DNA of 64,000 nucleotides, from positions 806,001 through 870,000 of the forward strand of contig JAWMAR010000567.1 in assembly GCA_036785375.1 (NCBI GenBank). The letters run 5' to 3'. The notes under the pieces are model-generated. The model saw only the letters and a program-made list of their open reading frames with translations. It had not been told where the DNA came from and did not search any database. The stretch is from Leucoraja ocellata (Eukaryota). How positions within the stretch are numbered: position 1 is the first letter of the stretch; every line of letters starts with the position of its first letter. Positions 7,001-63,328 of this stretch are shown here, one piece after another. Made by a program: the position numbers and the translations under genes.

Positions 7001-7253
7001 GAACAGAAGACATTCCCATTATTCATCTGGATCATCATTGATCTACTTCAATGCCATTTTCTGCACCACTGCAGCCCTTGATTCTTACGATTTTTGTTTT
7101 TAAGAAATATAAGACCGAGCCCCTGCAACTCTGTACGGTGGTGAATATCAAAAGTTCACTGCTCTCTGCATGAAAAACAAATGTTGCCTTTTCTCTGTAT
7201 TAAATGGTCAATCCTGTGTTCTGTGACAGTGACTTCTTGTTCTGGACTCCTTA

Positions 7254-7450
7254 AGGGCCTGTCCTCCTATCTGATTTTTTCGGCGACTGACGGCAGTCAC
7301 CGCTGGATTTTGAACATTTTAAAATCCAGCGGCGACAAAAAAAATGTTGCGACACCTGAGGAAACACAGAGCGTCAATACGTCATCACGCCGATACATCA
7401 GACAATGATGCTGGCAGTCGCCGAAAAAATCAGCAAATGGGACAGTCCCT
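7254..7450. mobile_element. PIF/Harbinger-type MITE
   Basis: TIRs AGGGCCTGTCC / GGACAGTCCCT, TTA TSD on both sides, internal inverted repeats. Confidence 0.78.
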
Positions 7451-8976: not shown

Positions 8977-9057
8977 GGTGACGAGATGAAAAAAGTAGGA
9001 ATACAGCCCATACCCATGATGGACAGGGAGAAAATTGATGAAATTCCTGACGGCCAG
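8977..9057 (+). CDS. PDE10A-like: PDE10A-like exon (81 nt)
   Basis: atacAG|GGT...CAG|GTAAAT. Encodes [27 protein letters not shown], in phase 0 with the previous exon, and ends in the invariant PDE Gln. Confidence 0.93.
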
Positions 9058-9874
9058 GTAAATAATAACCTACTAAATTTGAGAAAGCAAATCAGCTTCA
9101 GAGTAGATTGCTCATTATGTGGGAAATCCACATGGACATTTTAAAGATTAAGGTCTTTATTAACCATCCTAGCTGGCATTTTACCTGAACATCCTTGATA
9201 ATAATTTAATATTGTATTAATATGATTGTTCCAAGTTGATTTGTTTGCTGTACATGAGCTGGATACTTTAGATCACATCAAATTCTTGATTTTCTCTTGT
9301 GAAAAGAAGTTGTTTCTTTTTTACACATCAAATCTGGGAATCATATATATCACAAAGGTAAGATATTCAATACTGCATCCTACTTCAGGTGGAATCTGTG
9401 CAATACAAGTTGATAGTAGTTATATCGAGGCAGCTTCAATTACAACATCTAGATTTTATAATCAAGAAATCTATTAGCTCAATAACTATTCTTTAGCCTA
9501 AGAATATATGTGACAGAAGCAGGAATAGATTGTATGGCCCTTGACCTGGTTGTATCATCCAATCTTTCATGTAGAAATGTTCAAAGATTTACAATTCTTC
9601 AAGTAAATACATTTCTCACATCTGCATAAGGTATCCATCAAATTAATTGAAGACTGGATCAATACTTTCCCCCTGTAAATGAGTTATAAGAAATACTGAG
9701 TAGCACAGGATCAGATAATCTGGATAGGGGGCTTGGGATATCTATCAAATTAATTGAGGACTGGCTTCTGGATCTGTTTGCGATCTCAAGAGGAAAATCC
9801 ACCCCAGTATCCATTTAGTATCACCCTCCCTTGTCCAAGATAGTCAGATCCAGAAAGGCATAGCTGTCTGTACC

Positions 9875-11824: not shown

Positions 11825-12841
11825 AATACTATGCCATACTACCTGTGAATTCAACCAATCCAGTATCCAAAACTTGAAATTAAGTGACCAAGATTACTAA
11901 ATATGGTAAAATGCAGCTTATAATGGTGCTAAATACAAATTATATATAGTATTTAACCTTACAAATTGATTTATCCATACTTACCATAGATGATGAAGCT
12001 TTCAAAAATGGTTTGCACTGTAGTTTGGAGAGTACTTTCATCATTGCATGAATGAGTCCCCTGGTAGCTACCTTATAATAACATTTCCTGATGCCGTATG
12101 AATCACTTACCTCATTCAGATGTATTGATCCTGGAGGAGGTGCAGCATAGAATGACATAAAAGTTACAAATAATAAACTAATAGGACAGGTTGCAAAGAC
12201 AATCCTTGTGTTCAAAGGAAATCCTGAGGTGATTTAATCGAGGTGTTGTGTTACTATGATCAAACAAAGTTGACGGGCAGAATAAAGAAAATCTATTTCC
12301 TTTGGTGTGAGTGCCAATAGAATGTAGGCCATAACCTCAAACTTTGAGCTCAGCCATTCACGAATGATGTCAAACAAAGGCTGTTGAGGACATTAATGGG
12401 ACATTTTAAATCAAGTTTTGTTAAGCAGGTTGAGGAATACACAACCTAGACTATCATGAGACAAGTTGATTTTACGCAACTGATGATGTGTTGTTGCAAA
12501 AGTAATCCTGTTCAGTACAAGAGGAGCCACAGGTTCAGATGTTTGTTGTATATGCCTGGCGGAGAAGCCAGTAGTGCAAAGCAACCATCCGTCAGAATCC
12601 CACGTAATTCTACAAGAATCTACAAAGCAAATTCTTTAATTTGCCATTTTTCTCCGGTATTTTGTTCAATGATTCTTTTTCAAAAATATTCTGAAAGGTC
12701 ATTTCAATGAGTTCTGCCTGAGTATGATAAATATTGACCATCATCTAATTGAATGAAGCAACAAGCGTGAGGGTGTAGCTTTTATTCTATTTTTGATTTA
12801 TGATAATTAAAAAAAGACGTCTCCATTTTCCCTTTGCACAG

Positions 12842-12930
12842 GTTGGTTTCTACAATGCTGTAGCCTTGCCTTGCTATCGTACACTTGCAGAGGTCTTTCC
12901 AGCAAGCACTCAGCTGCTAAAAGCTTGCAG
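12842..12930 (+). CDS. PDE10A-like: PDE10A-like exon (89 nt)
   Basis: ttgcacAG|GTT...TGCAG|GTAGGA. Encodes VGFYNAVALPCYRTLAEVFPASTQLLKAC(R). Confidence 0.93.
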
Positions 12931-14334
12931 GTAGGAGTATCCATCGTAGAAAAATAGAAACAGGCTTTCCATTTCTAAATTAGATATTCCAATTCATGCA
13001 ACCCTTTTCTTTCAAATAAATATACAGGTACTTAAATGCAGAAAAAGATTAAAATCAAAAAAATATTTTGTAAGGCTTCTTGTTGTGCTGCTTAAAAGGC
13101 ATATCAATTGTGCTTTCTTAAATATAAGAAATTAATACCAAGTCCTATTGTGGAATAGAAAATGAATAGAAGCAATGAAATGAAGCAAACTTAAAGGATA
13201 GTCTTACAACCACCATTCTTTATTGTATCCAATAAGCTAAACCATTGCAATTGTGGAAAATTCTATACAATTAACACTTTTTTAATTGCAATTATGTGCA
13301 CTCCATATTCATTTGAAGCTATTACTAGAATTAATTTGCTATCTTTCAAGTATTCATACGTCAACAGTGGGAATGATAAAGACGCTGCACTTTATCCAGC
13401 CCCTGCTAAATATTTGAATGTCACATGATTTTAGCATCAAATCATATTCATCATCATAGCATCATACTTAAGCCTGTAGCCTGCAGGTTTTTTTAAAATA
13501 AAGTAAGTCCTGCTTCAAAATCTCTGCCGTTTGCTGATTCCATAACCATACAATCACAGTGCTTTTCCGTTTATTCAGAAATTGGGTATCTGTGAGATTT
13601 TATCAAGTTTTTAAGAGTTTGGAGTATCTGTTCCTTAATCAGTTTTTCACCTATTTAGGTCCAAAATGTTGAAGTAAATCTTGTAAGATGAATAAAGTAG
13701 AAATATGGGAAAAAATCTCAAGGCTTTTTTTTACATGAAACAAAATAATGTGGTTTTGCTGTGATACCAAACTTCAAACTCTGAAGAAGGGTCTCGACCC
13801 AAAACGTCACATATTCCTTTTCTCCAGAGATGCTGCCTAACCCGCTGTGTTACTCCAGCCTTTGTGTCTATCTTTGGTTTAAACCAACATCTGCAGTTCC
13901 TCCCTACATATTCAGACCCAGTTAGTTCATCTCAGATGGGAACTTCAGCAAGATACCGAAGAGACTTTGTAGATGAAGTTGGTTCATTACCATTCCACAA
14001 GCAAAGACTTGGAGAGAAGTTTATTAAGTTCATCACTACCTTGACGGCAAATTGAAGGAGTCATTATAATACAGCCAGCCTGCTTTCTTTTGATACTTTG
14101 AGGAATTTTAACCTCCAAGGCCAGAAAAAAAATGCAGCATTATCTATCCATTTCAGTAAAGGTAAGATTCAATGATTATAATACAGTCATTTAATATATT
14201 TATGGTGGCAGTCTTTCAGTACAACTCTGAAGGTATTACAACAAATTCTCCAAGACAATGGATGGCTAGATCAATTATGCTTTTTTTGGAGGAATATAGA
14301 ATGTTTTGCAAAGTATTATAAATGAAACAAAAGT

Positions 14335-19788: not shown

Positions 19789-22715
19789 CAATGGCCCCTA
19801 ATTGTTCTATGTATATAACAAAGCAATTACCAATAGACATTAATAGGAGCTCCAAGCTTAACATACATCAAAAACAAAATAAATATGCACTATTTGTTAG
19901 CATTCAGATTTCTTTGGCTATTCTTCTATCTTTGCCTTCGCCTTCTAGAAGCAGACATATCTTGGTTATATGTCTTTCCAAGATGTTGTTCTTAGTCTGA
20001 AGTCATACAATATGCACCAAACCTTTAACATTTGGCATGATCTCCAGTATTCTGCCCATCAACCAAGAACCTTGTGGTGCATTTGAATCAACCACCAAAA
20101 TGATAGCGCCTGAAATAAAATTTCTCCTAACCCTTGACCATCGCTGTCGTTCTTGGATTAGAGGCAAGTATTCTTGTGTCCAACGTTTCCAAAAAAGATC
20201 TGCCATATATTGTGTCTGTGTCTAACGTACACATCCTCCTTTACAAAGAGCCCAGGTGGTAGTATTGGATTAGTCTTCAGCAGAAGAAGATGATTCGGTG
20301 TAAGTGCTTCTAAGTCCCTAGGATCATCAGAACTCCTGGTAATGGGTCGATCATTTAAAATTGCTTCAATTTCACAAAATAAAGTTTGTAATCCTTCATC
20401 GTCCAGAACTTGTTGTTTAAGAACAGAGCGTAGCACATTTCGAACCATGCGGATCAATCGTTCCCAAACACCGCCGTGATAAGTTCCCGCAGGGGATTAA
20501 AATTCCATCGTATCCCTTGCTGAAGCATAGCATACTGAATTTTATCCTGATTTAAGCCTTTAAGTGCTTCTTTCAACTCTCCTCTCCAACAAAATTTGTA
20601 CCATTATCAGATTTTAATGATAAAACTTGACCTCGTCGACAGATAAATCTTTGTAACGCATGAATGCAGGAGTCTGTGTCAAGTGTAAATGCATCTTCAA
20701 GATTTACCGCTCTGATTGCCATGCAAGTGAAAATTACACCATACCTTTTCACAAGACTTCATCCTCTCTTGACTTCTGTAGGACCAAAGTTATCTACTCC
20801 TACATCTGTAAATGGAGGTTTATCAGGTAAAATCCTCTCCAGAGGTAAATCTACCATTTTCTGTTCTCCAACTTTTCCATGCTGTCATCTGCACATAGTA
20901 CAATTTTTTAATTATCTTTCTAGCAGCAGAGTTAGCTTTAATAATCCAATATTTCATATGAAGTTGCGACAGCATGTGATTTCTTCCTCCATCTGTTTAT
21001 GGATATGTCGTAACAGTAGTGTTGAAATGTGAAAATCCTTCGAGAGAATAATAGGATGCTTAGCCTCTTCAGGCATTCAGATTTCAGTTTAAGCTTTGGC
21101 CATTCTCTGTCTGGCTTACAGAGAAAATCTGGTCCCTTGATCCATCTCTTATTGCTTAAGATGCGGTCTGCTGTTAGTCCTCTAGAGGCTTCATCTGCAG
21201 GATTTTCCTTTGTGTTGACGTATTTCCATTGTGATACATTAGTAGCACCCCTTACATAAGAGATTCTGTTTGCTACAAATGTTTGAAAGCATTTGTTTTT
21301 ATTGTTGAAGTACTTAAGCACGGTAGTGCAATCAGTCCTGAAGATAGATTTCTCCACCTTGAGTTGTAATTCATTTTGCAGCATTATGTTAATATTGACA
21401 GCTAAAACTGCTGCTGGAAGGTCCATTCTGGGAACCGTTATTTGCGTCAATGGTGCCACTCTGACCTTTCCCATTAAGAATGCAACATGTACTTCATTGT
21501 TATCACTTTCCAGTCTTAGATATGAAACGGTATCGTAGCCACTTTCACTAGCATCTGAAAAGTGGTGCAGCTGTGCATATCTGATTTGACCAAAGTTTGT
21601 CGGCTTCATACATCGGTCCACTTTGAATTCCAAGATCTTGTCGTGATCTGCTAACCACTCTGTCCATCGCTGAGAGAAGATTTGCGTTATACTCTCATCC
21701 CATCCAAGCCTTTTCTGACAGAGCTCCTGCATAATTAACTTGGCTGGCAGAGTAAATGGTGCAAGAAATCCCAAAGGGTCGTATGTATAACCAATCACAG
21801 ATAGGATGTCCTGTCTTGTACATGGTCATTCCTGAATTGAGATTCTGAATTTGAACACATCTGTTTCAACACACCAGTGCAATCCATAGACAGATTGTAT
21901 TTGTCCAACTCCCTGATCTCCTTGGCTCTGTTATCTGGTGGAATGGTTTCCAATACAACACGGCTGTTGATGATCCACTTTGATAGCATGAATCCTCACT
22001 TTTTTGCAGAGGGAAGTCAGGTGTACTACCATTTGAATTGCTTCTTGATCCGAAGACATAGATTTTAAACAATAATCCACATAGAAATTGTTCTTTACTG
22101 TGTTTATCACTTCTTTTGGAAAATGAGCTTCATTATCCTCAGTGGTCCTCATTAATGCAAAGTTTGCACAATTTGGTGATGACACTGCTTCAAAGAGATG
22201 TTCCTTCATTCGGTATTCAACAAGATCTTGCTGTGCATCCCTCACCATAGGAATCGCAAATAATCATTATGTCTTTCTGATACTTTAACTTGATGAAACA
22301 TTGCTTTAATATCAGCCATCAAAGCAACTGGTTCCTGTCTGAATCTGATGAGAACTCCGATGAGTGAGTTGGTAAGGTCCAGACCTTGCAGTAGTTGGCA
22401 GTTAAGTGATGTTCCTTTGAAAACTGCTGCACAGTCAAAGAGCACCCTTAAGGTCCATTTCTTTGAGTGATACACCCCATGGTGTAGAATATACCAAAGT
22501 CCTCCATCACTTCGATTCAGCTGGTCTGTTGGTACCATTTCAGCATAATAATTGTCAATAATTTCCCTCAGAAAAGATGTATATTCATCATGAAATTTTG
22601 TATTCTTGCCAAACTAGCGTATCAGGTTCTGAATGCGCTGCTCGGCAATGCATCGTTTATTCGGCAAACAAACACTTTCTTGTTTGAAAGGTAAGTCTAG
22701 ACTAGAGTGTCCATC

Positions 22716-25567: not shown

Positions 25568-27323
25568 TTTTTTGTTTTTTTTTTTGTTTATTTTATTAGA
25601 AGTTAATACAGCGCAAAACAGTACAGTGGCACCTAATTTTAGGTGCCAACTATGTAATACCGTAATCCATTCTATGTACAACCTCTAGTTTTATGTTATA
25701 AGAAGGAAGTAAGCAGGACAAGAAAAAGAAAACAATAGAAAGGGGAAAAAGTGGAAAAATAGATGGTAGAGAGTAGAAAAACGTGAAGTGTGTATATAAA
25801 AAATAAAAAAAGGAAGAGAGAAAGTGGAAAGTAGAAATAGAAGAGAAGGCCCCTTAAAAGAGAATTTTTCAAATCTGTATTCGGAGATGTAGATCTATCC
25901 GCGTCATGAACTGAAATCAGCAATCCTTACGGTACCGCTGCATCACATGATTCCAAAAAGTCGATGAAAGGAGACCAACTCCTTAAGAATTGGTCATATT
26001 TATCTATTAGTCGGAGTCTCATTTCTTCAAGGCGTGCTATGTCCATCATATTCCTAATCCACATTTTAACAGTTGGTGTGGTTGTATTTTTCCAAAATTT
26101 AAGTATCAATTTCTTTCCAATTATTAACCCATAATTAAAAAAAACATTTTGATCTTTATTTAAATTGGTATCTTCTCCTATTATTCCAAATATAATCCAT
26201 TCCGTTTTGGGTTCTATTCTTGACTTGAAAATCTTTGTAAATATATCAAATATATCACTCCAAAATTTATTCAACTTTGTACATCCTACAAATGAGTGTG
26301 TTATATTAGCGTTTTGAAACAAACATTTATCGCATCTGGGAGAGACGTTTGGATAAAATTTATTCAACCTCGTTTTTGAATAATATAGTCTATGTAATAA
26401 TTTGAATTGAATTAAATTATGTCTTGCATTAATAGAACAGTTATGTGTATTCATCAAATACTTTTCCCATCTATCCTTCGAGATCTTTATCATTAGCTCT
26501 TGTTCCCAATCTTCCCTTAATGCTTCTGTTGAGGGTGATTCTCTATTTAATATATTATTATAAAAGTATGATATTAATTTTTGTGAATCAGCCTTAATAT
26601 TCATTGCTTCTTCTAAAGGATCTAAAAATATAGTTTGAAATCTATGTGTATATTTCTTCATAAAGTCACATACCTGTATATATTTAAAATATTGATTATC
26701 CTTCAATTTAAATTTTAATTTTAATTGTTGAAATGATAACAGTTTGCCCACTTCATACATGTCCCCTACTTTCCTAATCCCCAGTCTATCCCATTGTTGA
26801 TATGTGTTGTCGATGAGAGAAGGTTTGAATGCGGGGTTGTTCAATAGTGGGGTTAGTACTGATAAATTATTTAATTTCAAGTATATTTTTATTTGTTTCC
26901 AAATTCTTATTATATTGTGAATAATTGGGTTCTTTTTATATATTATACTATTCAATTTTATCGGTGAGAGCAGGATCGTTCCTATATCGTGCGGATAGCA
27001 CTCCTCTTTCTCCATTCTTATCCACTCCAACTGCTGAGTGGAACTATCCAGCCAGTATATTATGTTCTTAATATGCACTGCCCAGTAGTAATATATAAAG
27101 TTAGGTAATGATAAACCCCCAACTTCTTTAGATTTGCACAAATGCTTTCGTTGAATTCTATGTGTTCTGTAGTCCCATATAAAATTAGTGATAGTGGAAT
27201 CTAATTTTTTGAAAAAATATTTTGGAATATATATTGGGATCGCTTGAAACAAATATATTAATTGTGGTAAGAAAGTCATTTTTACAGCGTTAATTCTACC
27301 TATCAATGAGAGCGGAAGCGTTT
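25568..27323 (-). mobile_element. Young 5'-truncated L1-clade LINE
   Basis: 13-bp TSD ATTATAGTTAACT (25555-25567 and 27324-27336), AATAAA plus A-rich tail on the minus strand, uninterrupted ORF2 C terminus. Confidence 0.92.
25927..27306 (-). CDS. L1 ORF2 C-terminal part (post-RT region + CCHC zinc finger), truncated
   Basis: GRINAVKM, GGLSLPN, QFKLLHRLY and CDKC...H...C motifs in a 459-aa open frame. Confidence 0.8.
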   Translation of the reverse strand: MIGRINAVKMTFLPQLIYLFQAIPIYIPKYFFKKLDSTITNFIWDYRTHRIQRKHLCKSKEVGGLSLPNFIYYYWAVHIKNIIYWLDSSTQQLEWIRMEKEECYPHDIGTILLSPIKLNSIIYKKNPIIHNIIRIWKQIKIYLKLNNLSVLTPLLNNPAFKPSLIDNTYQQWDRLGIRKVGDMYEVGKLLSFQQLKLKFKLKDNQYFKYIQVCDFMKKYTHRFQTIFLDPLEEAMNIKADSQKLISYFYNNILNRESPSTEALREDWEQELMIKISKDRWEKYLMNTHNCSINARHNLIQFKLLHRLYYSKTRLNKFYPNVSPRCDKCLFQNANITHSFVGCTKLNKFWSDIFDIFTKIFKSRIEPKTEWIIFGIIGEDTNLNKDQNVFFNYGLIIGKKLILKFWKNTTTPTVKMWIRNMMDIARLEEMRLRLIDKYDQFLRSWSPFIDFLESCDAAVP

Positions 27324-39090: not shown

Positions 39091-40545
39091 TGAGTTACTC
39101 CAGCACTTTGTTCCCTTTTGTGTATTAACCAGCAACTGCAGTTGTTTATTTTTATTACTTATATATTGCTAATCCCGTTCTTATTTATAGTGAACAATCA
39201 GTAATAATAGATAGCATTCCATTCCCCCCCCCCCCAACGGTCTGTTATAATGAGGATGTACTGTAATAGCAACACTGATTACTCCAACTAGTTATTGTAA
39301 ATTTAATTTTACAATGTTAAATGCGAATAGTTTATTCAACATTATTATTTAGTAGTTTAGTTTAGAACATAATTACTTTTCTTGGACCTGCATCAATTCC
39401 CCATCCATCTATTTCCCCATGTTTACCAATGTAACCAGAATCTTAGCACAAAGCTCCAGAAATAGGGTTTTTTTTCTTCATTGTTGAGATTGGTAATTAA
39501 TTTATTTTTGAACTTAAGCAAAATATTATGCATTTTGAATATGTCAAGGAAAAGCAGATTGTGCGAAAAATTATTCAACATCTGTCGATGGAGAAAGTAA
39601 AGCTAATTGCAGTTCAATGGTCTTTCATCAGAACTGAGAAGAAAGTGATAAACAAGTTTAAGATGCAGAAAAAGAGGAGAGTGAAAGGAATAGATCTGTG
39701 ATAAGATAGAAGTGGAATGGTGATGGTGTGATGGATTGAAATCCCAGAGGAGGTGAAATTCGGAGGTATTGAACAGACATTATAAAAGCAAAAGATTCAA
39801 CATATCTAGCCACGATAAATAAATATTTTCAAAGAAAAATATTAAAACAATAAATAAATAAAGTTCCAGGCGAGTGCTCGACTTTGGCTTCTCCAGGGAA
39901 AATGTTTCCTGGGATGGTTTTCAAAAAAGCAGCATGGTAATTTCTTTCTTAAGTACCCTGTAACAAATATCACAAAGATTTGGAAGAGCAATTTATTAGT
40001 TTGATATTTATAATTCTGCAAAGATTGAGTAACATCATTGTAATATTAATATTTTATCATTAGTGGTTGAATTGAACTTTTGAGCAATTATTGTTTAGAT
40101 TGTTCGACACGATCAGTTCTTGGTTGGTTCTTGGTCCTCCAGAATATTCCAATTGAATTTAAACTGTAGGTAATTGTTCTAAAATATTCTAAGTTGAAAT
40201 TAGAATATTTCTTGAACCATCTATAACTTTAATAATGTTTTTAAAATACCTATAACTGTGGATGTTCAAGAAGGAACTGCAGATGCTGGAAAATCGAAGG
40301 TAGACAAAAGTGCTGAAGAAACTCAGCGGGTGCGGCAGCATCTATGGAGCGAATGAAATAGGCAACGTTTCGGGCCGAAACGTTGCCTATTTCCTTTGCT
40401 CCATAGATGCTGCCACACCCGCTGAGTTTCTCCCGCACTTTGGTATAACTTTGGATGTTTAATTGCCTGAATGTTGCAACTATCGTGACACCATGGACCA
40501 GCCATGCATTAACATTAAAGTTTTTATTGTATATTGAATTGGTAT

Positions 40546-41048
40546 TGAGGGAGTACAGAGAAGGTTCACCAGACTGATTCCTGGGATGTCAGGACTTTCA
40601 TATGAAGAAAGACTGGATAGACTTTGTTTGTAATTGCTAGAATTTAGAAGATTGAGGGGGGATCTTATAGAAACTTACAAAATTCTTAAGGGGTTGGACA
40701 GGCTAGATGCAGGAAAATTGTTCCCGATGTTGGGGAAATCCAGAACAAGGGGTCACAGTCTAAGGATAAGGGGGAAATCTTTTAGGACCGAGATGAGAAA
40801 ACATTTTTCACACAGAGAGTGGTGAATCTCTGGAATTCTCTGTCACAGAAGGTAGCTGAGGCCAGTTAATTGGCTATATTTAAGAGGGAGTTAGATGTGG
40901 CCCTTGTGGCTAAAGGGATCAGGGGGTATGGAGAGAAGGCAGGTACAGGATACTGAGTTGGATGATCAGCCATGATCATACTGAATGGCGGTGCAGGCTC
41001 GAAGGGCCGAATGGCCTACTCCTGCACGTATTTTCTATGTTTCTATGT
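40546..41048 (+). mobile_element. CR1 3' fragment
   Basis: Same family and tail as the 27651 copy. Confidence 0.9.
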
Positions 41049-41554
41049 ATTGATTTTAACCAATACTTTCTTCCCATTTTCTATCCAGGAGTAAACATTA
41101 AGATTCAGGAATCATAACCAATTAAAATGTTTTACTCTCCATCGTCCCTACACTTTCTGAAGATTTGTCAAACTTAGGCTGTAAATGTCAACTAAAAAAT
41201 AAAGAATTTGAGAAGCAGATTAATATACCGTGCTATTGTTGAAATGTGTAACGTATGAAGTTGGTTTAAATCAGGTGCCAACATATATATTTTATAATAA
41301 GCATAGGGAGTAGACCCTTGTCCGGATTTTAAGGGATATTACTAGTTAAAATGTTACAAAGATGATTGAGCAGAAGAAAGCAGAAGAGCAGCAGTTACTA
41401 ATATCTTTCATTCATTTGTTCATACATCTCTCTACATTATCGTCTATATCTCTTGTTTCCCTTTCCCCTGACTCTCAGTATGAAGAAGGTTCTCGACCCG
41501 AAATGTCACCCTTCCCTTCTCTCCAGAGATGCTGCCCGTCCCACTGAGTAATTC

Positions 41555-42030
41555 AAGCTGTTGTTCATTGACTACAGCTCAGTGTGCAACACCAGCATTC
41601 CCTCTACACTGACCATCAAACGCAGAGATGGCTCAGCAACTGCCATCCTCATTAGCAGACCGCAATCAGTACAAATTGGCAACAACACTTCCTCCTGGAT
41701 AACCATCAGCTAGGAGTATCTCAAGGCTCTACTCTCTACACCTATGAACGTCTGGCCAGATACCGTTCCACGCCGCATTCAAATCCCACCGTTGTTGGAC
41801 GAGTAATGGGTAACGACGAGACAGAGTATCGGATGGAGAATGAAAACATGATTGAATGGTGTCAGAATAGCAATCTTACTCTCAACATCAACAAGACCAA
41901 GAAGCGGATTGTTGACCAGAACAGGAAACCTGAGAATCCACAAATCAATCTGCATCGATCGGGCAGGATGGAGAGAGTCAATGGGCCTGCTCATCTCTGA
42001 AGGTCTGACCTAAGCCCAGCACATTGATGC
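41555..42030 (+). mobile_element. Degenerate Rex1/Babar-like LINE RT fragment
   Basis: LFIDYSS.. remnant and NDETEYR...WCQNSNLTLNINKTK. Similar minus-strand remnants at about 45050-45640 and 62200-62390. Confidence 0.6.
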
Positions 42031-42131
42031 AAGTACAAGGGGTGGGGAGTGGCAAGGAGAACATGGCTGGTGGGTGTTGTCATGGACACCGCTGCTTTCC
42101 CCCCCCCCCCCTTCCCGTCCATCACTCACTC

Positions 42132-42295
42132 CCCGGTGACGTGGCTCCTCCCGGTGACGTGGCTCCTCCCGGTGACGTGACTCCACCCGGTGACGTGGCT
42201 CCACCCGGTGACGTGGCTCCACCCGGTGACGTGGCTCCACCCGGTGACGTGGCTCCACCCGGTGACGTGGCTCCACCCGGTGACGTGACGTGGCG
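42132..42295 (+). repeat. 18-bp minisatellite (CCCGGTGACGTGGCTCCW) x about 9, forming a tandem UPRE array
   Basis: TGACGTG(G/A) starts at 42137, 42155, 42173, 42191, 42209, 42227, 42245, 42263 and 42281, plus an overlapping copy at 42286. Confidence 0.95.
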
Positions 42296-42350
42296 GGAGC
42301 CGGTCTGCGCTGAGCTGTACTTCCTGTCAGTGACGTCAGCCGGTGACGAG
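42132..42350 (+). promoter_or_regulatory. SEC23B: SEC23B CpG-rich proximal promoter: UPRE array, ETS site (ACTTCCTGT, 42319-42327), full CRE (TGACGTCA, 42331-42338)
   Basis: CpG-rich, non-TE segment about 6 kb upstream of the first coding exon, followed directly by splice donors. Motifs were read from the sequence. Confidence 0.78.
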
Positions 42351-42382
42351 GCAGAGGCAGAGGCAGCGCCGGCGCGGGGCAG
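42325..42382 (+). other. SEC23B: SEC23B non-coding exon 1 (start approximate)
   Basis: Donor GCAG|GTAGGC at 42382/42383, with an alternative donor GCAG|GTAACC at 42477/42478. In human SEC23B the ATG is in exon 2. Confidence 0.65.
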
Positions 42383-42484
42383 GTAGGCGACCCCGTCCCT
42401 CAATCTCCCCCCGTCTCCCTCCTCCCCGGCAACTCTCCCCATCCCCTCCCTGGGACCCCGGCGCCGGCACGGGGCAGGTAACCG

Positions 42485-43252
42485 CCCCCCCACCTCCGCT
42501 CCATACTCCTCCCCCCCCTCTTCACCCCCCTCTACCCCTCCCCTATACTCCCCCCCCCCCTCTTCCCCATCCCCCTCTCTATCCCCCCCCTCCATCCCCC
42601 TCTTCACCCCCTCCATCCCCCTCTTCACCCCCTCCATCCCCTCTTCCCCATCCCCCTCTCTATCCCCCCCCTCCATCCCCTCTTCTCCCCCCTCCATCCC
42701 CCTCTTCACCCCCTCCATCCCCTCTTCCCCATCCCCCTCTCTACCCCCCCCCTCCATCCCCTCTTCACCCCCTCCATCCCCTCTTCTCCCCCCTCCATCC
42801 CCTCTTCACCCCCTCCATCCCCTCTTCTCCCCCCTCCATCCCCTCTTCTCCCCCCTCCATCCCCCTCTTCACCCCCTCCATCCCCTCTTCCCCATCCCCC
42901 TCTCTACCCCCCCCTCCATCCCCTCTTCACCCCCTCCATCCCCTCTTCTCCCCCCTCCATCCCCCTCTTCACCCCCTCCATCCCCTCTTCACCCCCTCCA
43001 TCCCTCTTCCCCATCCCCCTCTCTACCCCCCCCCTCCATCCCCTCTTCACCCCCTCCATCCCCTCTTCTCCCCCCTCCATCCCCTCTTCACCCCCTCCAT
43101 CCCCTCTTCTCCCCCCTCCATCCCCTCTTCTCCCCCCTCCATCCCCTCTTCTCCCCCCTCCATCCCCTCTTCTCCCCCCTCCATCCCCTCTTCTATCGCC
43201 CTCTACCCCCCCCCATCCCCTCTTCTCCCATCTTTACCCCCCCCCCCCTCTC
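42485..43252. repeat. C-rich pyrimidine-biased low-complexity minisatellite (CCCCCTCCATCCCCTCTTCW-type units)
   Basis: About 750 nt with almost no G on the + strand, built from repeated CCCCCTCCAT / CCCCTCTTC blocks. Confidence 0.92.
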
Positions 43253-45829
43253 AATGAGCAAGTGTACTTGAGTACATATAAAAGCTGTATATTGATGAAG
43301 TGTACAGTGAAGAAAGACAACTGCGATGAATTGAATGATACAGTTCTTTACCTTCGCTTCAGTTAGGATGATGCCAATGAATGATCTTGAAAGTAACAGA
43401 GGGTGTCTCTGGGAGTGTATTCCAGAAGTAACAAAAATAGGGATAAGAGATGAACTCGTATTGTTTTGAAGATTGATCTCAGTTTTGGTAGTCAGTTTGG
43501 TCAAGATGACAACATTGTAAATTGTTGTGGTTCAGCCAGTGGTGGTGAATTAGTCCATGCAAATAATTGCTGTAAGGCACCCAGCGTCTGTTCAGTTCAA
43601 TTTATCTTGGCCTGATTTTGTAGTCATATTTATGTGGCCAACTTCAAATGAGTGTCGGATTAATGGTGACCCAAATCCCCACCCCCAGACACCCTCCCTC
43701 CCGTCTGGCCCAGGGTATTGATATGGGGGGCTCATTGTGGTTAGATTCTTTCTAGTTGGAAATTGTTGTCAGTTGTCCTTCACAACTTGTCCATCCATGC
43801 GTGAATGTTATCTAGGTCTTGGGTATATAAGTATGCTGAGCAGTTGTGAATGGAATTGAACAGTGCACAGTCTGTGACAAACAACCCCACCTCTCATCTT
43901 ATAATGGAAGGAAGAGTGTTGATGAAATAGCTGGTGATGGTTGAGCAAGGGGCACTGCACTGAAGGAATCCTGTCCTCTGGTGGAATGGTTGACATTTTT
44001 CCAACTGCAGCCATTACCCTTTGTTCACTGTATGACCCCAAACATTGAATGATGATCATTAATGTCAGTTTCACCAGCGCTACTTGAAGCTGCACTCAGT
44101 CAAAATTTACCTTAATGATGAGAGTCTCTCTCGTTTTGCTTCTGGAATTCACTTCTTTGATCCAGACATGAACTAAAGGATGTAATAAGTTCTGGAGCCA
44201 CGTAGTCCTACAAAAGCAAGTACAAGGAACTGCAAATGCTTGTTTACAAAAAAAGACCCACAGTGCTAGAGTAACTCAGCAGGTCTGAAGAAGTGTCCTG
44301 ACCCAAACCATCACCTATTTAGAAAGGCAGTGTCCAGATCTGCTGCCTGATCAGCTGAGTTACTCCTGCACTTTGTCTTTTTTTACCTGTGAAATGAAGA
44401 CTGGGTAATGGTGAGCAGGAAATCCTGCTTGGACCCTGTCAATCGCACCATCTATCACATTGCTGGGTAGACTGAGCAGACAATAAATAGATTTGGATTT
44501 GTCCTGTGTTTTATTCATAGAATATCTCTGGGTAGTTTTCCACATGGTCAGGTACATGTTGTAATTGTAGTGGAGCAGCTTGGCTAGAATTGCAGCTAAT
44601 TTGGAGCACAGATTGTCAATGTTAACAGTGGGAATCTCATCTGATTTCATAGCACAGGATACACCAAAGAGCTTGTCTCTAGTACTCTGACTGTGCCCTA
44701 CCGTCATGGAGGATACAAGGTGTCTTAGAATGATGGAATCGTAAAGCTATACGACATCAAAGTGGACCTTTCAGGTCAACTCATCCATGCCGACCAAGCA
44801 GCCCAACTGAACGAATTCCACTTGCCCATATCACTACAAATCATTTATATCTATGTACCTGTCCAAGTGTCTATTAAATGTCATAATTAAACCACTGCTA
44901 TCTCTTCCTATGGTAGCTCGTTCTATGTATGCGCCGCCCTCTGTGTGAAAATGTTGCCCCTGAGGTCCTTTATAGATATTTTTCCTCTCATTGTTAAAAC
45001 TATGCCGTCATGGACCCACCATCTCCCATTAGCTGTTTAATTCTCCACCATCATTGATGATCAGATGTGGTATGATAGTGGAGCTTTGGCCTGATCTGTT
45101 GGTTGTAAGATTTGAATTGCCAAAGCAGGTCATAATGCAGCCAGTCTGCCTGCTCTCTACTGTGCACCTGCATGAGTTTGATGGAGTGTCGCCAGCATAC
45201 TATCGGTAATCTTCAATCTTCTAAGGAAGTAGGGGCATTGATGAGGTTACTCAGGTGCCGAAGGTCCATTTCATCCTCCAATTTAGACCTAAAATGTCTC
45301 CTCTTTTTTCTAATGGCCTTATCCAGGTCGTACCTGGACTTCCTATGTGATACTGTATCACCAGGTTTCAATGCCCGACGCATGGGCCACAGCAGACATC
45401 CTGGTTCATCTGCTTCTGGTTAGGGGACACACAGATGGTCTTGGTGGGAACACTCTCCACCACACATTCAACCATGACGTATTCGTTCAGCTCTGTTGCT
45501 GAATCCTGGATAATTGCCCAGTTTACTGACACAAAACAGTCGATGAGTTGTTCCTCTGCTTTCCCTGATATGCTCTGTGCAATCCTCACCACTGGAGCTG
45601 CGTTCTGAAGCCGCTGCCTATACGCAGTAAGGAACGGCGCCTGTATTTGCAACGCAACCTGCTGTTTACTTTCCCCATCCAGTTTCATTTGCCCTCGATT
45701 CCCCCATGTAATGTATGCAGCAAGCATGTTTACTTGGATCAACACAGTCTCAATCGCTACGTGGCACAATCTCAACTACTTCAGTGTAAATAATTTTTTT
45801 CCAAATGTATTTTCTGCTGGTGGTAACAT

Positions 45830-46546
45830 TGTGACGTTTTGGGGCGAGACCCTTCTTCAGACTGAGAGTCAGGGGAAAGGGCAACGAGAGATATAGATGG
45901 TACTTCAAACATATTAATGGAAAATATGCTGAAAGCAACGGTGATCAAAAAAACATCGAACTCACGACGGTCAATTGTTTTACTGTCATCCTGTTGAGCT
46001 CCACTGTCTATATAACGGTGTAACTCGGCAGGAGACAGTAAAACTAGGGTGGGGGAGGGATGGAGAGAGAGGGAATGCAAGTGTTATAGTTGGTTAGAGA
46101 AATCAACCGCTGGGTTGTAAGCTGCCCAAGCAAAATATGAGGTGCTGTTCCTCCAATTTGTGTTTGGCCTCACACTGACAATGGAGGAGGCCCAGGACGA
46201 AGAGGTCAGTGTGATAATGGGGAGGGGAGTTAAAGTGTTTGGCAACCAGGAGATCACATACGCCGAGGCAGACCCCGTTCCTCCCCTCCCCTAGTCGTCA
46301 AACCAGTTTTACTGCCCTCCTAGGTACACAAAATTGCTGGAGAAACTCAGCGGGTGCAGCAGCATCTATGGAGCGGAGGAAATAGGCGACGTTTCGAGCC
46401 GAAACCCTTCTTCAGACTGATGGGGAGTGGGGGGAGAAGGGGGGAAAAGTGGAGGAGGAGGAGGAGCCCGAGGGCGGGCGGGTAGGAGGGTGGGAGGAGA
46501 CAGCTAGAGGGTTAAGGAAGGGGAGGAGACAGCAAGGGCTAGCAAA
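45830..46546 (-). mobile_element. Two adjacent Penelope-derived 3' fragments with hammerhead repeats
   Basis: Endonuclease C-terminal remnant at 46100-46260; hammerhead-like cores at about 45833-45860 and 46388-46415. Confidence 0.72.
46388..46415 (-). ncRNA. Minimal type I hammerhead ribozyme motif (intact core)
   Basis: Minus strand reads gt-CTGAAGA-A-GGGT TTCG GCTC-GAAAC-GTC-gcc. Confidence 0.62.
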
Positions 46547-46715
46547 ATACCTCCTCGTAAAGTCCCGGCTCTGGAACTCTTTATCCAGAACTGCCGCCGC
46601 GACGGTAACCGCCTCAACTTCTCCACTCCCTTGTCTCACTCTAATCTTTCCCCCTCTGCAGCCACATTTAATGTCCTCCTGTTGAGTTCCACTGTCTGTA
46701 AAACTTGTTATCACT

Positions 46716-47100
46716 GGAATTTGGAAAGATGAGAGGGGATCTTATAGAAACATATAAAATTCTTAAAGGATTGGACAGGCTAGATGGAGGAAAAATGTTC
46801 CTGATGTTGGTGGAGTCCAGTACCAGGGGTCACAGTTTAAGAATTAGGGGTCTTTATTAGGACTGAGATGAGGAAAAACATTTTCAGCCAGAGTTGTGAA
46901 TCTGTGGAATTCTCTGCCACACAAGGCAGTGGAAGCCAATTCACTGGATGTTTTCAAGTGTGTTTGATTTAACTCTTAGGGTGAAAGGAATTGAGGGATA
47001 TGGGGAATAAACAGGAACAGGGTACTGATTCTGGATGATCAGCCATGGTCACATTGAATGACGGGGCTGGCTCGAAGGGCCTACACCTATTTTTTATGTT
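46716..47100 (+). mobile_element. Older CR1 3' fragment
   Basis: MRGDLIETYKILKGLDRLD remnant plus the CR1 3' UTR. Confidence 0.8.
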
Positions 47101-47197
47101 ATCACCTATCACACTGCCAACAATGGATCATTGTGGACTCCACATTTCCTTGATTATCATTGCTTTCTGCATATCTACCATTCATTTGTGCTAAGTA

Positions 47198-48163
47198 CAG
47201 GTGCACAACCTTTTATCCGGTGTTCCGGAAACCGAAAAACTCCGAAAACCAGCCATTTTTTCCAGATGTCGTCTGCGCACCAAAGCTCGCGTTTGGCGCC
47301 AAACTTGACCCGAAACGACCCACGGTCAACCCAGGTCTGTACTACTGTAGCGGCTGCCTCCTCCCCGGAGACCGGGAGACGCTTAAACATCTGTAAATCA
47401 TTGCTTAAATGTTAGTCAGTTAGTTTGGAGGGCTTTTATGTGAAGGGGGGGTGAAGGGGTAAACTTTAATTCTTAGTCCCCTACCTGGTCGGAGAGGCGG
47501 GGAGCGGTCAATGCCTTACCGGGTCGCCGTGCAGTAAGCTCCGCAGCGCTGTGGCCGGTGGGGCAGCGGGCGGCGCCGGTTATAGCTCCGACCCCGGCAA
47601 CTCTACCCCTGGCTGCGAGGCGCTCCAAATCCAGCGCGGCCCGCGGCCTGATGCCCCAGCTCCGTGAATGTCGGGAGTCAGCGGCGTCGCAGCGCTGGGA
47701 TACCAGCTGGGAGCGGGCAATGCCTTACCGGGTTGCCGTGCGCTAAGCTCCGGAGCGCTGTGGCCGCCGACCCAACGTTCGCGGAGCGGCGCTGGATTTG
47801 GAGCCGCGCAGCCAGGGGTAGAGTTGCCGGGGTCGGAGCTCCAACCGGCGCCGCCCGCGGCCGGACGAAGCCCCCAGCTCCGCGAGGTTGGGAGTCGCCG
47901 ACCAGGTAGGGGATTAAGAATTAAAGTTTCCTCCTTCACCCCTACTCCACCACCACCACATAAAATCTCTCCAAACTAACTGACTAACATTTATGCAATG
48001 ATTGTCCCGGTCTCCGGGGAGGAGGCAGCTGCTCCAGACTTTTCAAGCCGCCCGCTCTACCTACCTAATCTACGCTAAAAATCTTCCATTCGGAAATCCG
48101 AAAATGTCCGAAATCCGACAAGTGTCTGGTCCCAAGGCTTTCGGATAAAAGGTTGTGCACCTG
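47198..48163. mobile_element. Tc1/mariner (pogo/Tigger-like) non-autonomous element, CpG-rich and fold-back
   Basis: Perfect 22-bp TIRs CAGGTGCACAACCTTTTATCCG, TA TSD, nested internal inverted repeats; it splits an older Penelope-derived repeat. Confidence 0.9.
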
Positions 48164-48379
48164 TACCATCTATATCTCTCGTTTCACTTTCACTTTCGGC
48201 TCAGTTTCAAGAAGGGTCTCGACCCAAAACATTACCTATTTTCTCCGGAGATTCTGCATGACCCGCTGTTACTCCTGCTTTTTGTATCTATCTTCGGCTT
48301 AAACCAGCATCTGCAGTTCCTTCCTTTGTCTTCATGAGAAACCTAGTTTTAATATAAAAATGCAAATGGAAATGTTTAA

Positions 48380-48688
<309 letters not shown>

Positions 48689-48874
48689 TAGGATATCTAC
48701 ATTTCATTGTATCCTAAAGACGAAATGTCCAGCTGTAATATGAAACCATTCTAACTTCTTCTCTGGAATTTTAGAAACTAAAAGATTACATTTAAAGTAC
48801 ATTCAGTTCTATGCACCAGGTACTGCTGGTAAAGTAATGGCAATAGTTTGAATTGGTAATGTTTCATTGTAAAG

Positions 48875-50765
48875 AACACAAAAAGCTGGAGTAACTCAGC
48901 GGGTCAGGCAGCATCTCTGGAGAGAAGGAATGGGTGACGTTTCGGGTCAAGACCCTTCTTCAGACAAGGTGGAAAGGGATGGCAGGGGGGAGGAGAAGAG
49001 TGGGATAGTGGGAGAATGGGTGCACACTGGGGTTGGGAAAGGGAAAGGAAAGAAGGCAAAGGGTGGGGTGTTACCTAAACTTGGGGAATTCAATGTTCAT
49101 ACTGTTGGGTTGTGAGCTACCCGAGCGGAATATGCGGTTGCAGGGAGAAGTACTTGTGGAGGGGGCAGTTTGTGTAGAAAGGGATGAGTGAACCAAGGAG
49201 TTGCAGAGGGAGTGGTCTCCACTGGGTGCGGATGGGAAGATGTGGCTAGTGATGGGATTAAGTTGAAGGTGGCAGAAATGTCTGAGAATGATGTGTTGGA
49301 TGCGGAGGGCCGTGGGGTGAATGGTATGGACTAGGGGAACTTTATCCTTGTTCCGTCTGGGTGGAGGGGGAGCAACCAGGAGATCCACCAGGCCTAGGAG
49401 GACCGTTTCAGTAAAACGGTCACCCAGTCTACGCTTGCTGTTGCCCAGGGAGCCCATCATCGGGAGCACTGCCTTCAGTAGATGATATTAGAGGAGGTTT
49501 ATGTGAATTTCTGTCTCACTTGGAAGAGCTGCTGGGGTCTCTGGTTACAGGTGAGGAAGGAGGTGTAGATCTGCAGTTGCAGGGGAAAGTACCTCGGGAG
49601 GGGCAGTTTGAGGGGGAAAAGATGTGCGGACCATTAGTTTGCAGGAGGAGTGGTTTCTACGGAAAGCAGAAAGAGTCGTGGGTGGGAAGATGTGACTAAG
49701 TGGGACCCTTCTTGAAACTGTGAGTCAAGGGAAAGTCTAGGTGGTGGTAATGTAGGAGATTGATGTCATGGATGCAGAACCTGGTGCAGTGATATGTAAA
49801 GACCAGGGGACTTGTTCAATCTAGGGGGAGGAGCTGCAGGACAGAGGTGACAGGGATGGAGGATTCATTCACAACAGTAGCGTGTAAACTACATTTACTA
49901 AAAGCAGACATCTTGGATGCCCTCGAGTGGAAAACCGCATCTTGGATGCAAATGTGACAGAGAGAGTGAGAGTGGTCGATGGTGTCCATGCATGAGGCAG
50001 GGTGGGAAGAGGTGTTGTCAAGATAGCTGGGATTCAGTGGGGTTTTAGTCGATGTCAGTTGAAAGTCTGTCCTCTCTGATGGAGAAGGAGAGATTGAGAA
50101 AGGGAAAAGATAGTTCCGTGCATTTGAGGACAAGGTGCAAGTTAGTGGGAAAGTTGTTGAAATCAGCAAGTTTTGTGCAGGAGACAGCCCCGATGCAGTC
50201 GTTGATGTCGTGGAGAAGGGGTTGTGGGGTGGTGCCAGTGCATGTTTGAAACAAGCACTGTTTGACATAACCAACAAAAAGGCAAGCATAGCTGGGGCCC
50301 ATGCGACTGCCTGCCCATGGGTACACCTTTGATTTGTAGAAAGTGAGAGGAGGAGAAGTTCTGCAAGGCAGAGGAGAGTGTTAATAGAGGGGAACAGAGC
50401 GGACTGCTGCTCAAGGAAGAACTAGAGAGTCCTGTGACCTTCCAGATAAAGATGAGAACTGTTAAAATTAAAGTTGTCAAAGTGTTGAAGATCATGTGAG
50501 GCGTGTCAGATGTAGGTCGGAAGGAAGATAGGATGGAGTCAAGGTATTTGGAGATGCGTTCGGTGGGGCAGGAGCAGGCAGAATTCAATCACTCTGCCAT
50601 TGTAGTCCTGCTTGTGGATTTATGAAAGAGACAGAAATGGGCAATATGGGGTTGGGGAACTGAGGTTTGAGGCTGTGAAGGGGAGAAAATTGCCAGAGGT
50701 GATGAGATCAGTGATGGTCTTGAAGTTGGTAGCCTGCTGCTTGTTTGTGGGTCATGGACAAGTCA
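48875..50765 (-). mobile_element. Degenerate Penelope-like retroelement (RT + GIY-YIG remnants + hammerhead-bearing terminal repeat)
   Basis: CSCPTERISKYLD, LQIKGVPMG/SRMGPSYACLFVGYV, a degenerate YIDD, and SKRRLGDRF. Hammerhead core at 48936-48963. Confidence 0.82.
48936..48963 (-). ncRNA. Minimal type I hammerhead ribozyme motif (intact core)
   Basis: Minus strand reads gt-CTGAAGA-A-GGGTC TT GACCC-GAAAC-GTC-accc: CUGANGA box, stem II, GAAA, palindromic ACGU stem III and a GUC triplet. Confidence 0.7.
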
Positions 50766-51548: not shown

Positions 51549-51731
51549 TACTATAAGGTCTGCTGATTCTTCAGAAGATGTACAACAGTCTGATATTTGA
51601 AGTGATTCGATTTGAGATGACAAGACTTATAAAAGAGCTTTGTTTGCAACATTTTGTTACAGACATGTGCACTCATTGGATTGAATTATTACTCTTTGCT
51701 CAGTTTATCCATTTAATCTGATCCAGTTATA

Positions 51732-52091
51732 CAGGTTGAACACCGATTTTCCGCAACCTCGGTTCCAGACTCTGGAGGGGGAGGAGGAGGGTGGGGAGGG
51801 GGCGGGGGGAAGAGCAACGGGAGAAACAGACGGCAGGTGGGGAGTGGATAAAGCCACTGCCGACAGCAAGAAACAGCCGCAGGAGGGAGTGAGGTCGAAA
51901 GCCAGGGCTCTAAACGGTCGGGGAGACGGTGGGAGCCGGGAATGGGTCAGAAAGTCGTTCCATTCCTGTTCGGTTTTCAATGCCATCTCTGGCCTCTCGG
52001 TGTTTCAACTAGTAAATTTGTCTGGATTTTAGGACGAGGGGGTTGTGGGGGGGGGAGTACATCTGTTGCCGGTTAATGGGTGTTCAACATG
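51732..52091. mobile_element. Tc1/mariner-type MITE
   Basis: TA|CAGGTTGAACAC ... GTGTTCAACATG|TA. Confidence 0.75.
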
Positions 52092-53592
52092 TATTTACCT
52101 TTGCAATCCCGCTCACATGCAAAATGTCAGGCCTATGTCATCAGGGGTCAGTTTATATTATTAACACTTTCATTCCTTTCTTCGTGTGATCTTTACAGAG
52201 TCCTGCTATTCTGGAGGTTTTAGTTTTCATGATAGAAGCAATTATTGATTAGACAGTTGTTTATTCAACATTTAGTGTGGGTTCTAATATAATTGAAGAG
52301 CAGACTGAGGGAAATCTGAATGAAATCGTGTAGCTTGCATAGTTGGCATCCTTGAACCAATTTGAGATGATAATATTTTGTTCCATGCAGTACCTGTGAC
52401 ACATCTTATTCATTTATTTGATGTTTTAGTCAAGCAGATTGCAACAGAGAATGGAAGAATATCATTTCATACATATGGGTTTTGATTTGAAGGTGTGACA
52501 CAAATTTGACTGTATTTATGTTAAATAAGATAACTGATGTTTCAACTATATTAAAATAATAATTAATGGAAGGTTTTGTTACAAAATCCAGTGAATGCAG
52601 AACACTGGATTATTTTTAAACGGGGTTTAATATTGATTTAATTACTCTTATAATGCAATTTGTGCAACAATCCAACGTCGGAGGTAATGTACCAAAACGT
52701 ATCTGGCTCATTGACATGGTAACTGTCGAAGGATTATTTTGACGATTGCCATTATACAACTCTAAAGGAGACGTGGAGGAATACAAAAACCCTCTGAGCA
52801 CCAGTGAAACTCTGCATTCGAAACAGTGTGCTGGTACACCTCATCAGACAACCACCTCAGCATCTGAAGACATCAACTCACAATGGAGTGAAAATAGAGA
52901 TTTCTTTAAAAGAAAGCAACCAGTGACTAGCCAGTTTAGACATGACCTTGGTGTGTGGGGGAAAAAAACAAAACATGCCCCAGAAGGCAGTGGAGGCCAA
53001 TTCACTCGATGTTTTCAAGAGGGGGTTAGATTTACTCTTGAGACTAAAGGAATCAAGGGATATGGGGAAAAAAAGCAGGAACGGGGTACGGATTTTAGAT
53101 GATCAGCCATGATCATATTGAATGGCGGTGCTGGCACGAATGGCCTACTGCTGCACCTATTTGGCTAAATCAATTTTTTAAACAGTCTAATGTTTTTTTA
53201 CCAAATTAGAATATATGGTTTTGAATTGTTTTTTTTAATGCAATTTGAAATAAAACCAGAAAATGCCAGAAGAAATTAAGGGATCAGACTGCATTTGTGG
53301 CAAGAGAAAGGGAATTGACATTTCTGATTGAAGACACCCTGGAAGAACAAAGGGTTCATTCCATATTCCTCATTCTACAAATGCTGCCTGACCCTCTTGA
53401 GTGTTTCTATTTGTTTCTATTACATGCTGCCCATCACAAGTTTCATCTGCGTTTTGTATATAGACATGCGCACCAGTGCAATAATGAATGAAATGAAAGA
53501 TAAAGTTACCTCATTTAGAAATTAAAACCAAACATAATTATTAATGTATATACATGTAGTGGAGGAATAGAGTTCTTGTTTTACTAAAGTAA

Positions 53593-53691
<99 letters not shown>

Positions 53692-54129: not shown

Positions 54130-55025
54130 TGTAGTGTATTCATGCTTACCCTACCGAATGTCTAGCTTTTTCTTTTATCACAATTTTCCAAACTTAAATC
54201 TGTGCCCTCTAACTCCAGATTCTGTTTATCTATCCTATTAATGACCCTTATAATGTTATAAACTTCTCTAAGGTTGCCCTTCAGCATCCTATATTCCAAT
54301 CTTTTCTTATAACTACAGCCCTCCATTCATTGCAATAATCTTGGTGAATCTCATCTGCACTCTCATGATATTGTATCTTTCCAGCAGTATGGCTAACAAG
54401 TGTGGTTGAACCAATATTTCATCCAACTGCAACATGACATAATTCATTTACTCACTGCGTCTACCTATGAAGTCAAGCCTGACAAATATATTTATCACCA
54501 CACTGTTTGGCTCTGTAACCATTTTCTTGGAGCTGTAGATTTACACTACAAGGCTTCTCTGCACATAACCACTAATTAGGTTCCCGGTCTAACAGAAATT
54601 GATTTGCCAAAGTTCATAACCTCACACTTACTGGCATTAAATTCCATCTATTACCTGTCTGCCCAGGTGATAAATGTACAGATGAATCCTTAGACAAACC
54701 TCTTTGAGTTCCATCACTACTCAAATGTTGTTTTGAAAACTTACTAATCGTACCANNNNNNNNNNNNNNNNNNNNNNNNNNNNNNNNNNNNNNNNNNNNN
54801 NNNNNNNNNNNNNNNNNNNNNNNNNNNNNNNNNNNNNNNNNNNNNNNNNNNNNNNNNNNNNNNNNNNNNNNNNNNNNNNNNNNNNNNNNNNNNNNNNNNN
54901 NAGGCAATTTGCGTACATTCCTCAGATACCTTGACATTTAACCAGCTCGCCATGCAGGACCTTGTCAGAAGCCTTGCCCTAGTCTTTGTGAACCATGTCT
55001 ACTGCCCTACCATCAATTCTCTTAG
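54130..55025 (-). mobile_element. Old degenerate CR1 fragment spanning the assembly gap
   Basis: Minus-strand similarity to the CR1 RT C-terminal region (e.g. WNLMP, corresponding to WQMEFN). Confidence 0.55.
54756..54901. other. Assembly gap (146 N)
   Basis: Run of n characters. Confidence 1.
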
Positions 55026-55279: not shown

Positions 55280-55372
<93 letters not shown>

Positions 55373-55456: not shown

Positions 55457-55765
<309 letters not shown>

Positions 55766-63245: not shown

Positions 63246-63328
63246 GATATGCTGGGACTTGCAAAACCACCAGCAGGAGTTCAAGGAAGCGCCCCTCAAC
63301 CACAAGAGCACCCTGGTTTATCCAGCAG
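63246..63328 (+). CDS. SEC23B: SEC23B exon 6 (83 nt); the gene continues beyond the window
   Basis: aaacAG|GAT...AG|GTATTA. Encodes DMLGLAKPPAGVQGSAPQPQEHPGLSS(R); QPQEHP matches SEC23B. Confidence 0.92.

Follow-up and report, generated by a model that had tools for sequence, protein, structure and literature searches.

Promoter tandem repeats that carry the binding site of a stress-response factor have been described before. In human TRIB3, a 33-bp VNTR of the promoter (Ord et al. 2020) contains an ATF4 element and is inducible by tunicamycin, apes having a single copy of it, and reporter activity was ~5-fold higher when going from 1 to 5 copies; the element is of the C/EBP-ATF type, the alleles have 1-5 copies and both the polymorphism and an eQTL are proven (PMC7425993). 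At human germline-open sites, insertions of 5-20 bp often duplicate a transcription factor (TF) motif, and clusters of motifs are built by mutational bias (Kaiser et al. 2021, PMC8559717). Tandem sites have also been engineered, p5xUPRE-GL3 being a standard reporter (PMC9863596) and 3xCreb3l2-RE a construct that responds to Creb3l2 and XBP1 (PMC6722061). ChIP of XBP1s in the liver of mice gave a peak 32 bp upstream of the start of Sec23b, and the XBP1 knockout lowered both the mean (16.3 vs 9.8) and the 12-h amplitude (0.45 vs 0.07) of this gene (PMC6959563). With the TRIB3 VNTR the concept of the promoter repeat is already established. A tandem-repeat enhancer repressed by MORC3 is reportedly a further instance of the class (PMC13373173).

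In the stretch of Leucoraja ocellata DNA that we have analysed (64 kb, called the window from here on), an 18-bp minisatellite is found at the putative promoter of SEC23B (Table 1). Like the TRIB3 VNTR, it would be a promoter tandem repeat whose unit contains a stress-response bZIP element, and by analogy it may work like a TRIB3-type repeat; it differs in having an XBP1s/CREB3-type UPRE and ~9 units of 18 bp at a COPII gene of a cartilaginous fish, known from one haplotype. It resembles mouse Sec23b in the gene itself, in a similar position with respect to the likely start and in the adjacent ETS core, as found in the XBP1s cistrome, but the mouse datum is a 102-bp peak and not a site count, and the ETS site beside the skate array is not the GABP consensus. 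With the homotypic clusters of Kaiser et al. 2021 it shares the short duplication of a TF motif at a regulatory site and a mutational origin, although those are rare single human insertions whereas at SEC23B the duplication continued to ~9 units. The two reporters also have tandem ACGT-core bZIP sites before a promoter and answer to XBP1s, ATF6 or Creb3l2; they are engineered while the SEC23B array is natural, and the likeness considered here is one of general design. We found no report of a natural UPRE minisatellite or of a SEC23B promoter repeat in the open literature, which leaves most subscription papers outside, and the mouse papers that name Sec23b together with a VNTR have an intronic SINE as their subject.

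Table 1 Coordinates of the features found in the window (position 1 is its first nucleotide)
Feature	Position	Strand	Details
Three late exons, PDE10A-like phosphodiesterase gene	937-1080, 8959-9141, 12797-12931	+	Pfam PDEase_I
C13 run just 5' of the array	42099..42111	+	
18-bp minisatellite	42132..42293	+	8 full units and a partial 9th; 10 TGACGTG(G/A) matches
Small CpG island	42276..42490	.	215 bp, 22 CpG, o/e 0.78, GC 0.73
Two overlapping UPRE matches, promoter-proximal end	42281..42293	+	5-bp GTGAC doubling
ETS-core site CAGGAAGT	42319..42326	-	Differs from GABP consensus CCGGAAG
Initiator-like BBCABW match	42326..42331	+	Candidate start, with +1 at 42329
Degenerate unit-junction copy	42330..42352	+	83% over 23 nt; extra TGACG half-site at 42344
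Palindromic CRE TGACGTCA	42331..42338	.	Single one in the window
Candidate exon-1 donor CAG/GTAGGC	42380..42388	+	After base 42382; 2nd of 406 GT sites
Second candidate donor CAG/GTAACC	42475..42483	+	After 42477; 5th of 406; 95 bp downstream
Motif-free C-rich minisatellite	42577..43194	+	21-bp period, 29 copies; 41- and 282-bp higher-order periods
SEC23B first coding exon	48452..48687	+	ATG 48467; alternative acceptor 48449
SEC23B coding exon 2	53622..53679	+	
SEC23B coding exon 3	55280..55366	+	87 nt
SEC23B coding exon 4	55505..55741	+	
SEC23B coding exon 5	63246..63328	+	

The TRF program placed the array at 42132-42287 with a period of 18, 8.7 copies, 97% matches, 0% indels and a score of 291, and its head-to-tail organization makes it a minisatellite in the usual sense (unit of at least 7 bp). 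A first, sequence-only reading of the locus had counted nine 18-bp units; the array is real in the assembly, but its ninth unit is partial. The first two units have T as their final base, the third has a G>A change at the last base of the motif, units 4 to 8 are identical, and the ninth fits the unit for 12 bases, after which it merges with the overlapping tenth site. The A of this ninth unit can be read as a 5-bp doubling or a breakpoint and not as a point change. That the units are nearly identical suggests either a recent expansion or ongoing homogenisation. TGACGTGR has ten matches in the window, all of them on the + strand and within 42137-42293, against a mean of 1.44 in shuffled sequences (0/100 shuffles reach 10); since the copies of an array are not independent, this excess only demonstrates that there is an array. 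The same reading spoke of a 10x UPRE. Ten matches there are, but the ninth and the tenth overlap with an offset of 5 bp and could hardly be occupied simultaneously, what leaves at most nine independent sites. This overlapping pair is probably the ancestral site. Each unit has two CpGs, as had been stated and as the count bore out. Concerning a unit that might be a dispersed repeat, a doubt that had been raised at the outset, no further copy with up to 4 mismatches and no blastn or tblastx partner was found within the 64-kb window.

A single-copy or few-copy site stuttered by the assembler might produce the same picture, and the five identical units, the gapped assembly (146 Ns at 54756-54901, in a SEC23B intron, with no exon lost there) and the neighbouring C-rich repeat, hard to sequence, would fit it. 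Nevertheless, four different types of unit follow each other in order along the array, without indels, and we consider such an artefact very improbable. Owing to the gap in the assembly the count of identical units is uncertain, but a minimum of four units should be genuine, whatever inflation there may be in the identical runs.

On the + strand there are five coding exons, which together specify the N-terminal portion of a Sec23 protein. The best full-length match among those listed was a zebra-shark protein with 162/170 identical residues over three exons, followed by the chimaera with 160/170, and all the other listed proteins had 156 or fewer. A tree was made with 31 named proteins out of the 120 listed (the unnamed and mostly redundant ones were omitted), and in it the zebra-shark protein falls in one clade with the mammalian SEC23B, with 100/100 support and apart from the SEC23A clade. 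The tree contains that protein and not the exons of the window, which are tied to it by identity and share with the SEC23B clade the segments VVPLACL and NFCFQRN. Exon identity and clade together support SEC23B as the downstream gene, as originally proposed. The alternative identity, SEC23A, came from the PDB matches, among which there was no SEC23B chain, and from the name Sec23A that the zebra-shark protein has in its source, and was ruled out by the tree. In public annotation the SEC23B orthologues of zebra shark, sturgeon and gar carry the name Sec23A.

Two acceptors in tandem, 48449 and 48452, serve the first coding exon, and because the latter lies 15 nt 5' of the ATG one would expect a further, non-coding exon upstream. 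The donor that follows base 42382 is the best candidate for the end of this exon; "exon 1" and "promoter" denote here a predicted exon and its predicted promoter. It lies 89 nt after the end of the array, in agreement with the ~90 nt given earlier. A 36-nt duplicate with 81% identity (42366-42401 and 42461-42496) yields both candidate donors of Table 1. The ranking was made with a crude matrix over the 406 GT sites in 41001-48450, and the top-scoring donor-like site (47905) belongs to a transposon of the intron. The stretch 42101-42480 lacks an ATG. The small CpG island is contiguous with the array, persists when the array is collapsed, and resembles no other part of the window. An ETS site and a perfect CRE had been described behind the array. 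The CRE stands as described; the ETS site has only the core, and CGGAAGT is absent from the whole window. Another CpG-rich segment, 47195-48166, was considered as promoter and discarded, being a transposon bounded by inverted repeats of 25 bp that are perfect.

The Initiator (Inr) consensus is BBCABW, and four matches to it occur in 42051-42480. One of them (CTCACT, +1 at 42128) is upstream of the array, so the array could belong to the 5' UTR, with transcription starting at or before 42128, or SEC23B might start elsewhere. CpG-island promoters often have dispersed starts, which also speaks for a 5' UTR location. Both versions seem very unlikely to us. The ~40-bp gap between the tenth site and 42329 resembles the position of the mouse XBP1s peak (-32 bp) and that of TGACGTGG in zebrafish sec23a (-3 to -10, PMC3209646), and folding of the RNA from 42128-42382 showed nothing out of the ordinary (z=0.58). 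This fold value, together with the lack of Rfam matches in 40000-49000, also led us to drop a structured RNA at this place. As for a start elsewhere, the other intergenic CpG-rich patches are three that match repeats elsewhere in the window, one transposon with inverted ends, and two unassigned ones (17201 and 34301) that have no TGACG site. No divergent coding gene that could share the promoter was found among 406 scanned upstream ORFs, a scan that covered ORFs of at least 38 aa with less than 30% self-repeat. Only 9/406 had Pfam hits with E<=0.01: three PDEase_I on the + strand, five transposon domains and one weak CGLA_M.

The PDEase_I domains come from a PDE10A-like phosphodiesterase gene, of which the window includes three late exons, one of them with PDE10A as its best PDB matches. 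This gene ends near 13 kb and is placed tail-to-head ~29 kb upstream of SEC23B. Between both there is a decayed BEL/Pao LTR retrotransposon (20006-22613, - strand, with Peptidase_A17, rve and DUF5641) and a 464-aa open stretch corresponding to the 3' part of a LINE ORF2 (25930-27321, - strand, zf-RVT). Just upstream of the array, 41560-42030 has the look of a decayed LINE reverse-transcriptase fragment, a reading that Pfam and in-window comparisons did not confirm. Intron 1 of SEC23B harbours the ~970-bp CpG-rich non-autonomous DNA transposon mentioned above, with TA flanks, 25-bp perfect TIRs and long internal palindromes, which we take to be a Tc1/mariner (Tigger-like) element, and the next intron contains another element (51731-52098), which is shorter and whose inverted ends, TA-CAGG..., are related.

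We have also compared the motif of the array with published sites and targets. The TGACGTG(G/A) of the earlier reading is indeed the published UPRE, whose consensus, preferred by XBP1s, is TGACGTGG/A (PMC8301375), and it agrees with the stringent XBP1s ChIP consensus CCACGTCA, linked to productive XBP1s binding (PMC6959563). All ten sites are TGACGTG(G/A), and 8/10 have the stringent form on the minus strand. TGACGTGG is also recognised by the CREB3 family (PMC3116243). ETS motifs accompany the XBP1s peaks, the GABP consensus being CCGGAAG (PMC6959563). The minus strand of 8/10 sites reads GCCACGTCA. We assume that its label as a CREB3-family motif, taken over from the first reading, is correct; the literal string was not found in the CREB3 literature searched.

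That COPII genes are targets of these factors, as had been argued, holds for SEC23B in other organisms: it is among the XBP1s-induced genes of B cells (PMC8301375), and work on zebrafish and mouse counts sec23b or SEC23B among the targets of Creb3l2 (PMC3209646, PMC3116243). In Drosophila, CrebA sites are required by secretory genes (PMC3003312). The part of the argument that invoked cartilage does not carry over, since it is mostly about the paralogue Sec23a: BBF2H7/CREB3L2 raised SEC23B only 1.3-2-fold in human erythroblasts, and SEC23A 7.5-10.5-fold (PMC6491999). In medaka, the response of the Sec23a and Tango1 promoters to BBF2H7 was not reduced after mutating the predicted CRE-like sites (PMC5461018). 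ERSE (CCAAT-N9-CCACG) and ERSE-II (ATTGG-N-CCACG), with the consensus taken from PMC8301375, have 0 matches in the window, and this absence makes XBP1s or the CREB3 family likelier readers than ATF6 with NF-Y. No CACGTG E-box was found near the array either, which argues against USF or TFEB as readers; with the motifs missing there, the ERSE/ERSE-II and the E-box/CLEAR readings were dropped.

The core of the HIF site is RCGTG, and CREB binds TGACGT half-CREs. Every unit contains both TGACGT and [AG]CGTG and a perfect CRE adjoins the array, so that constitutive CREB1/ATF1-type bZIPs or HIF might read it, giving a basal or hypoxic expression and not one induced by ER stress; moreover, the ACGT core is common to bZIP factors (PMC6722061). 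Against this, the full TGACGTGGC context of the sites fits the XBP1s consensus and the mouse orthologue is a direct XBP1s target, and we consider such readers unlikely.

When the array was collapsed, four distinct TGACG sites remained in the 215-bp island, against a mean of 0.41 in shuffled sequences (P=0.0006, 10,000 shuffles), and with the 5-bp doubling removed as well there were still three (P=0.003). After collapse of the array, no other 100-bp window of the sequence is as dense in TGACG as this cluster. Nine further CpG-rich patches were compared: seven had no TGACG, one had a single site and one had three. The last one (7201-7500), in an intron of the PDE10A-like gene, has its three half-sites in 300 bp, indicating that a residual cluster of this kind is not unique. 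The surviving cluster and the XBP1s peak of mouse Sec23b together suggest that the array most likely grew out of an XBP1s/CREB3-type site that was there before, in line with the single ancestral site that had been postulated.

The surroundings of the array seem prone to duplication. The 18-bp array and the motif-free 21-bp array are the two highest-scoring TRF arrays in the 64 kb and lie ~280 bp apart, and the C13 run, the 36-nt duplicate and the 5-bp doubling all fall within 400 bp. The minus strand of 42090-43260, which would be the template strand, contains 21 G3-type G-quadruplex patterns. At the start of intron 1, the GC skew of the + strand is strongly negative over 42577-43194. A motif-free minisatellite so near indicates that local mutational instability explains the origin of the array without selection. 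If a random 18-bp piece of the collapsed 415-bp region were amplified, it would carry the UPRE for 19/397 starts (4.8%), with a share of 2-10% for unit lengths from 10 to 40, against 33/63,838 18-bp starts window-wide. With ~5% of local amplifications carrying a UPRE, chance cases would be expected across many promoters.

It had been pointed out that every variant inside the motif stays within TGACGTG(G/A), but as a sign of function this has no weight. The eight full units contain two independent substitutions, and 31/54 of the possible ones would spare the motif (P=0.325), so that an inference of selection from two events is powerless. The intact CpGs of the array are equally uninformative about an unmethylated state: with the CpG/non-CpG mismatch ratio of 2.7 obtained from 44 repeat-copy pairs of the window their P is 0.32, and under assumed ratios of 5 and 10 it is 0.17 and 0.07. 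We infer that the array arose mutationally and that selection is unnecessary to explain its expansion.

The same observations would suit a silent minisatellite, a neutral passenger whose copy number leaves the output of SEC23B unchanged in vivo, either because the ancestral site and the CRE already saturate the promoter or because the distal units carry methylation or sit within a nucleosome. The larger of the two neighbouring arrays lacks the motif, small duplications are clustered nearby, the motif could have been caught by chance in a few percent of the amplifications, the unit variants bear no signal of selection, and mutational bias is known to build motif clusters (PMC8559717). On the other hand, the stringent CCACGTCA consensus fits 8/10 sites, a CpG island directly adjoins the array, and multimerised sites raise the output in reporters and at TRIB3. 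A silent array is the main alternative, but in our opinion a rather unlikely one.

The explanation that we prefer, with a probability of roughly 0.55, is a dosage-raising array of mutational origin. The proximal promoter of SEC23B would already have borne an XBP1s/CREB3-family site beside the CRE and the ETS core. Within a duplication-prone stretch, an 18-bp piece with this site may have been tandemly duplicated and then expanded, recently, by slippage or unequal exchange. This would have left up to nine bZIP sites in a homotypic cluster, placed ~40-200 bp before the likely start. XBP1s, and also CREB3L1/2 or XBP1s-ATF6 dimers, probably occupy several of the units, and the occupied units would raise both the basal and the ER-load-induced transcription of SEC23B above that of a one-copy allele, with saturation. 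By analogy with the known systems, extra consensus sites beside a promoter usually add output.

A bolder version, in which the array is a polymorphic and positively selected dial on the COPII export capacity of a cartilaginous fish, appears to us quite unlikely. If it were true, the number of units would set the IRE1-XBP1s and CREB3L2 drive on SEC23B, and this could serve the lifelong secretion of cartilage matrix, folding under high urea or the amplitude of a 12-hour rhythm, of which Sec23b is a canonical output in the mouse through XBP1s and for which descent from a tidal clock has been proposed (PMC6959563). CpG methylation of the distal units would then set the effective copy number in each tissue. 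The array offers a clean test of whether homotypic promoter clusters come from mutational bias or from selection. Should the number of units be without effect, it would be an ordinary promoter minisatellite that has caught a real site. If copy number varies and also scales expression, it would be a non-mammalian counterpart of the TRIB3 VNTR in a different arm of the UPR, and the skate would provide a natural allelic series for the dosage of XBP1s/CREB3 sites at an established direct target.
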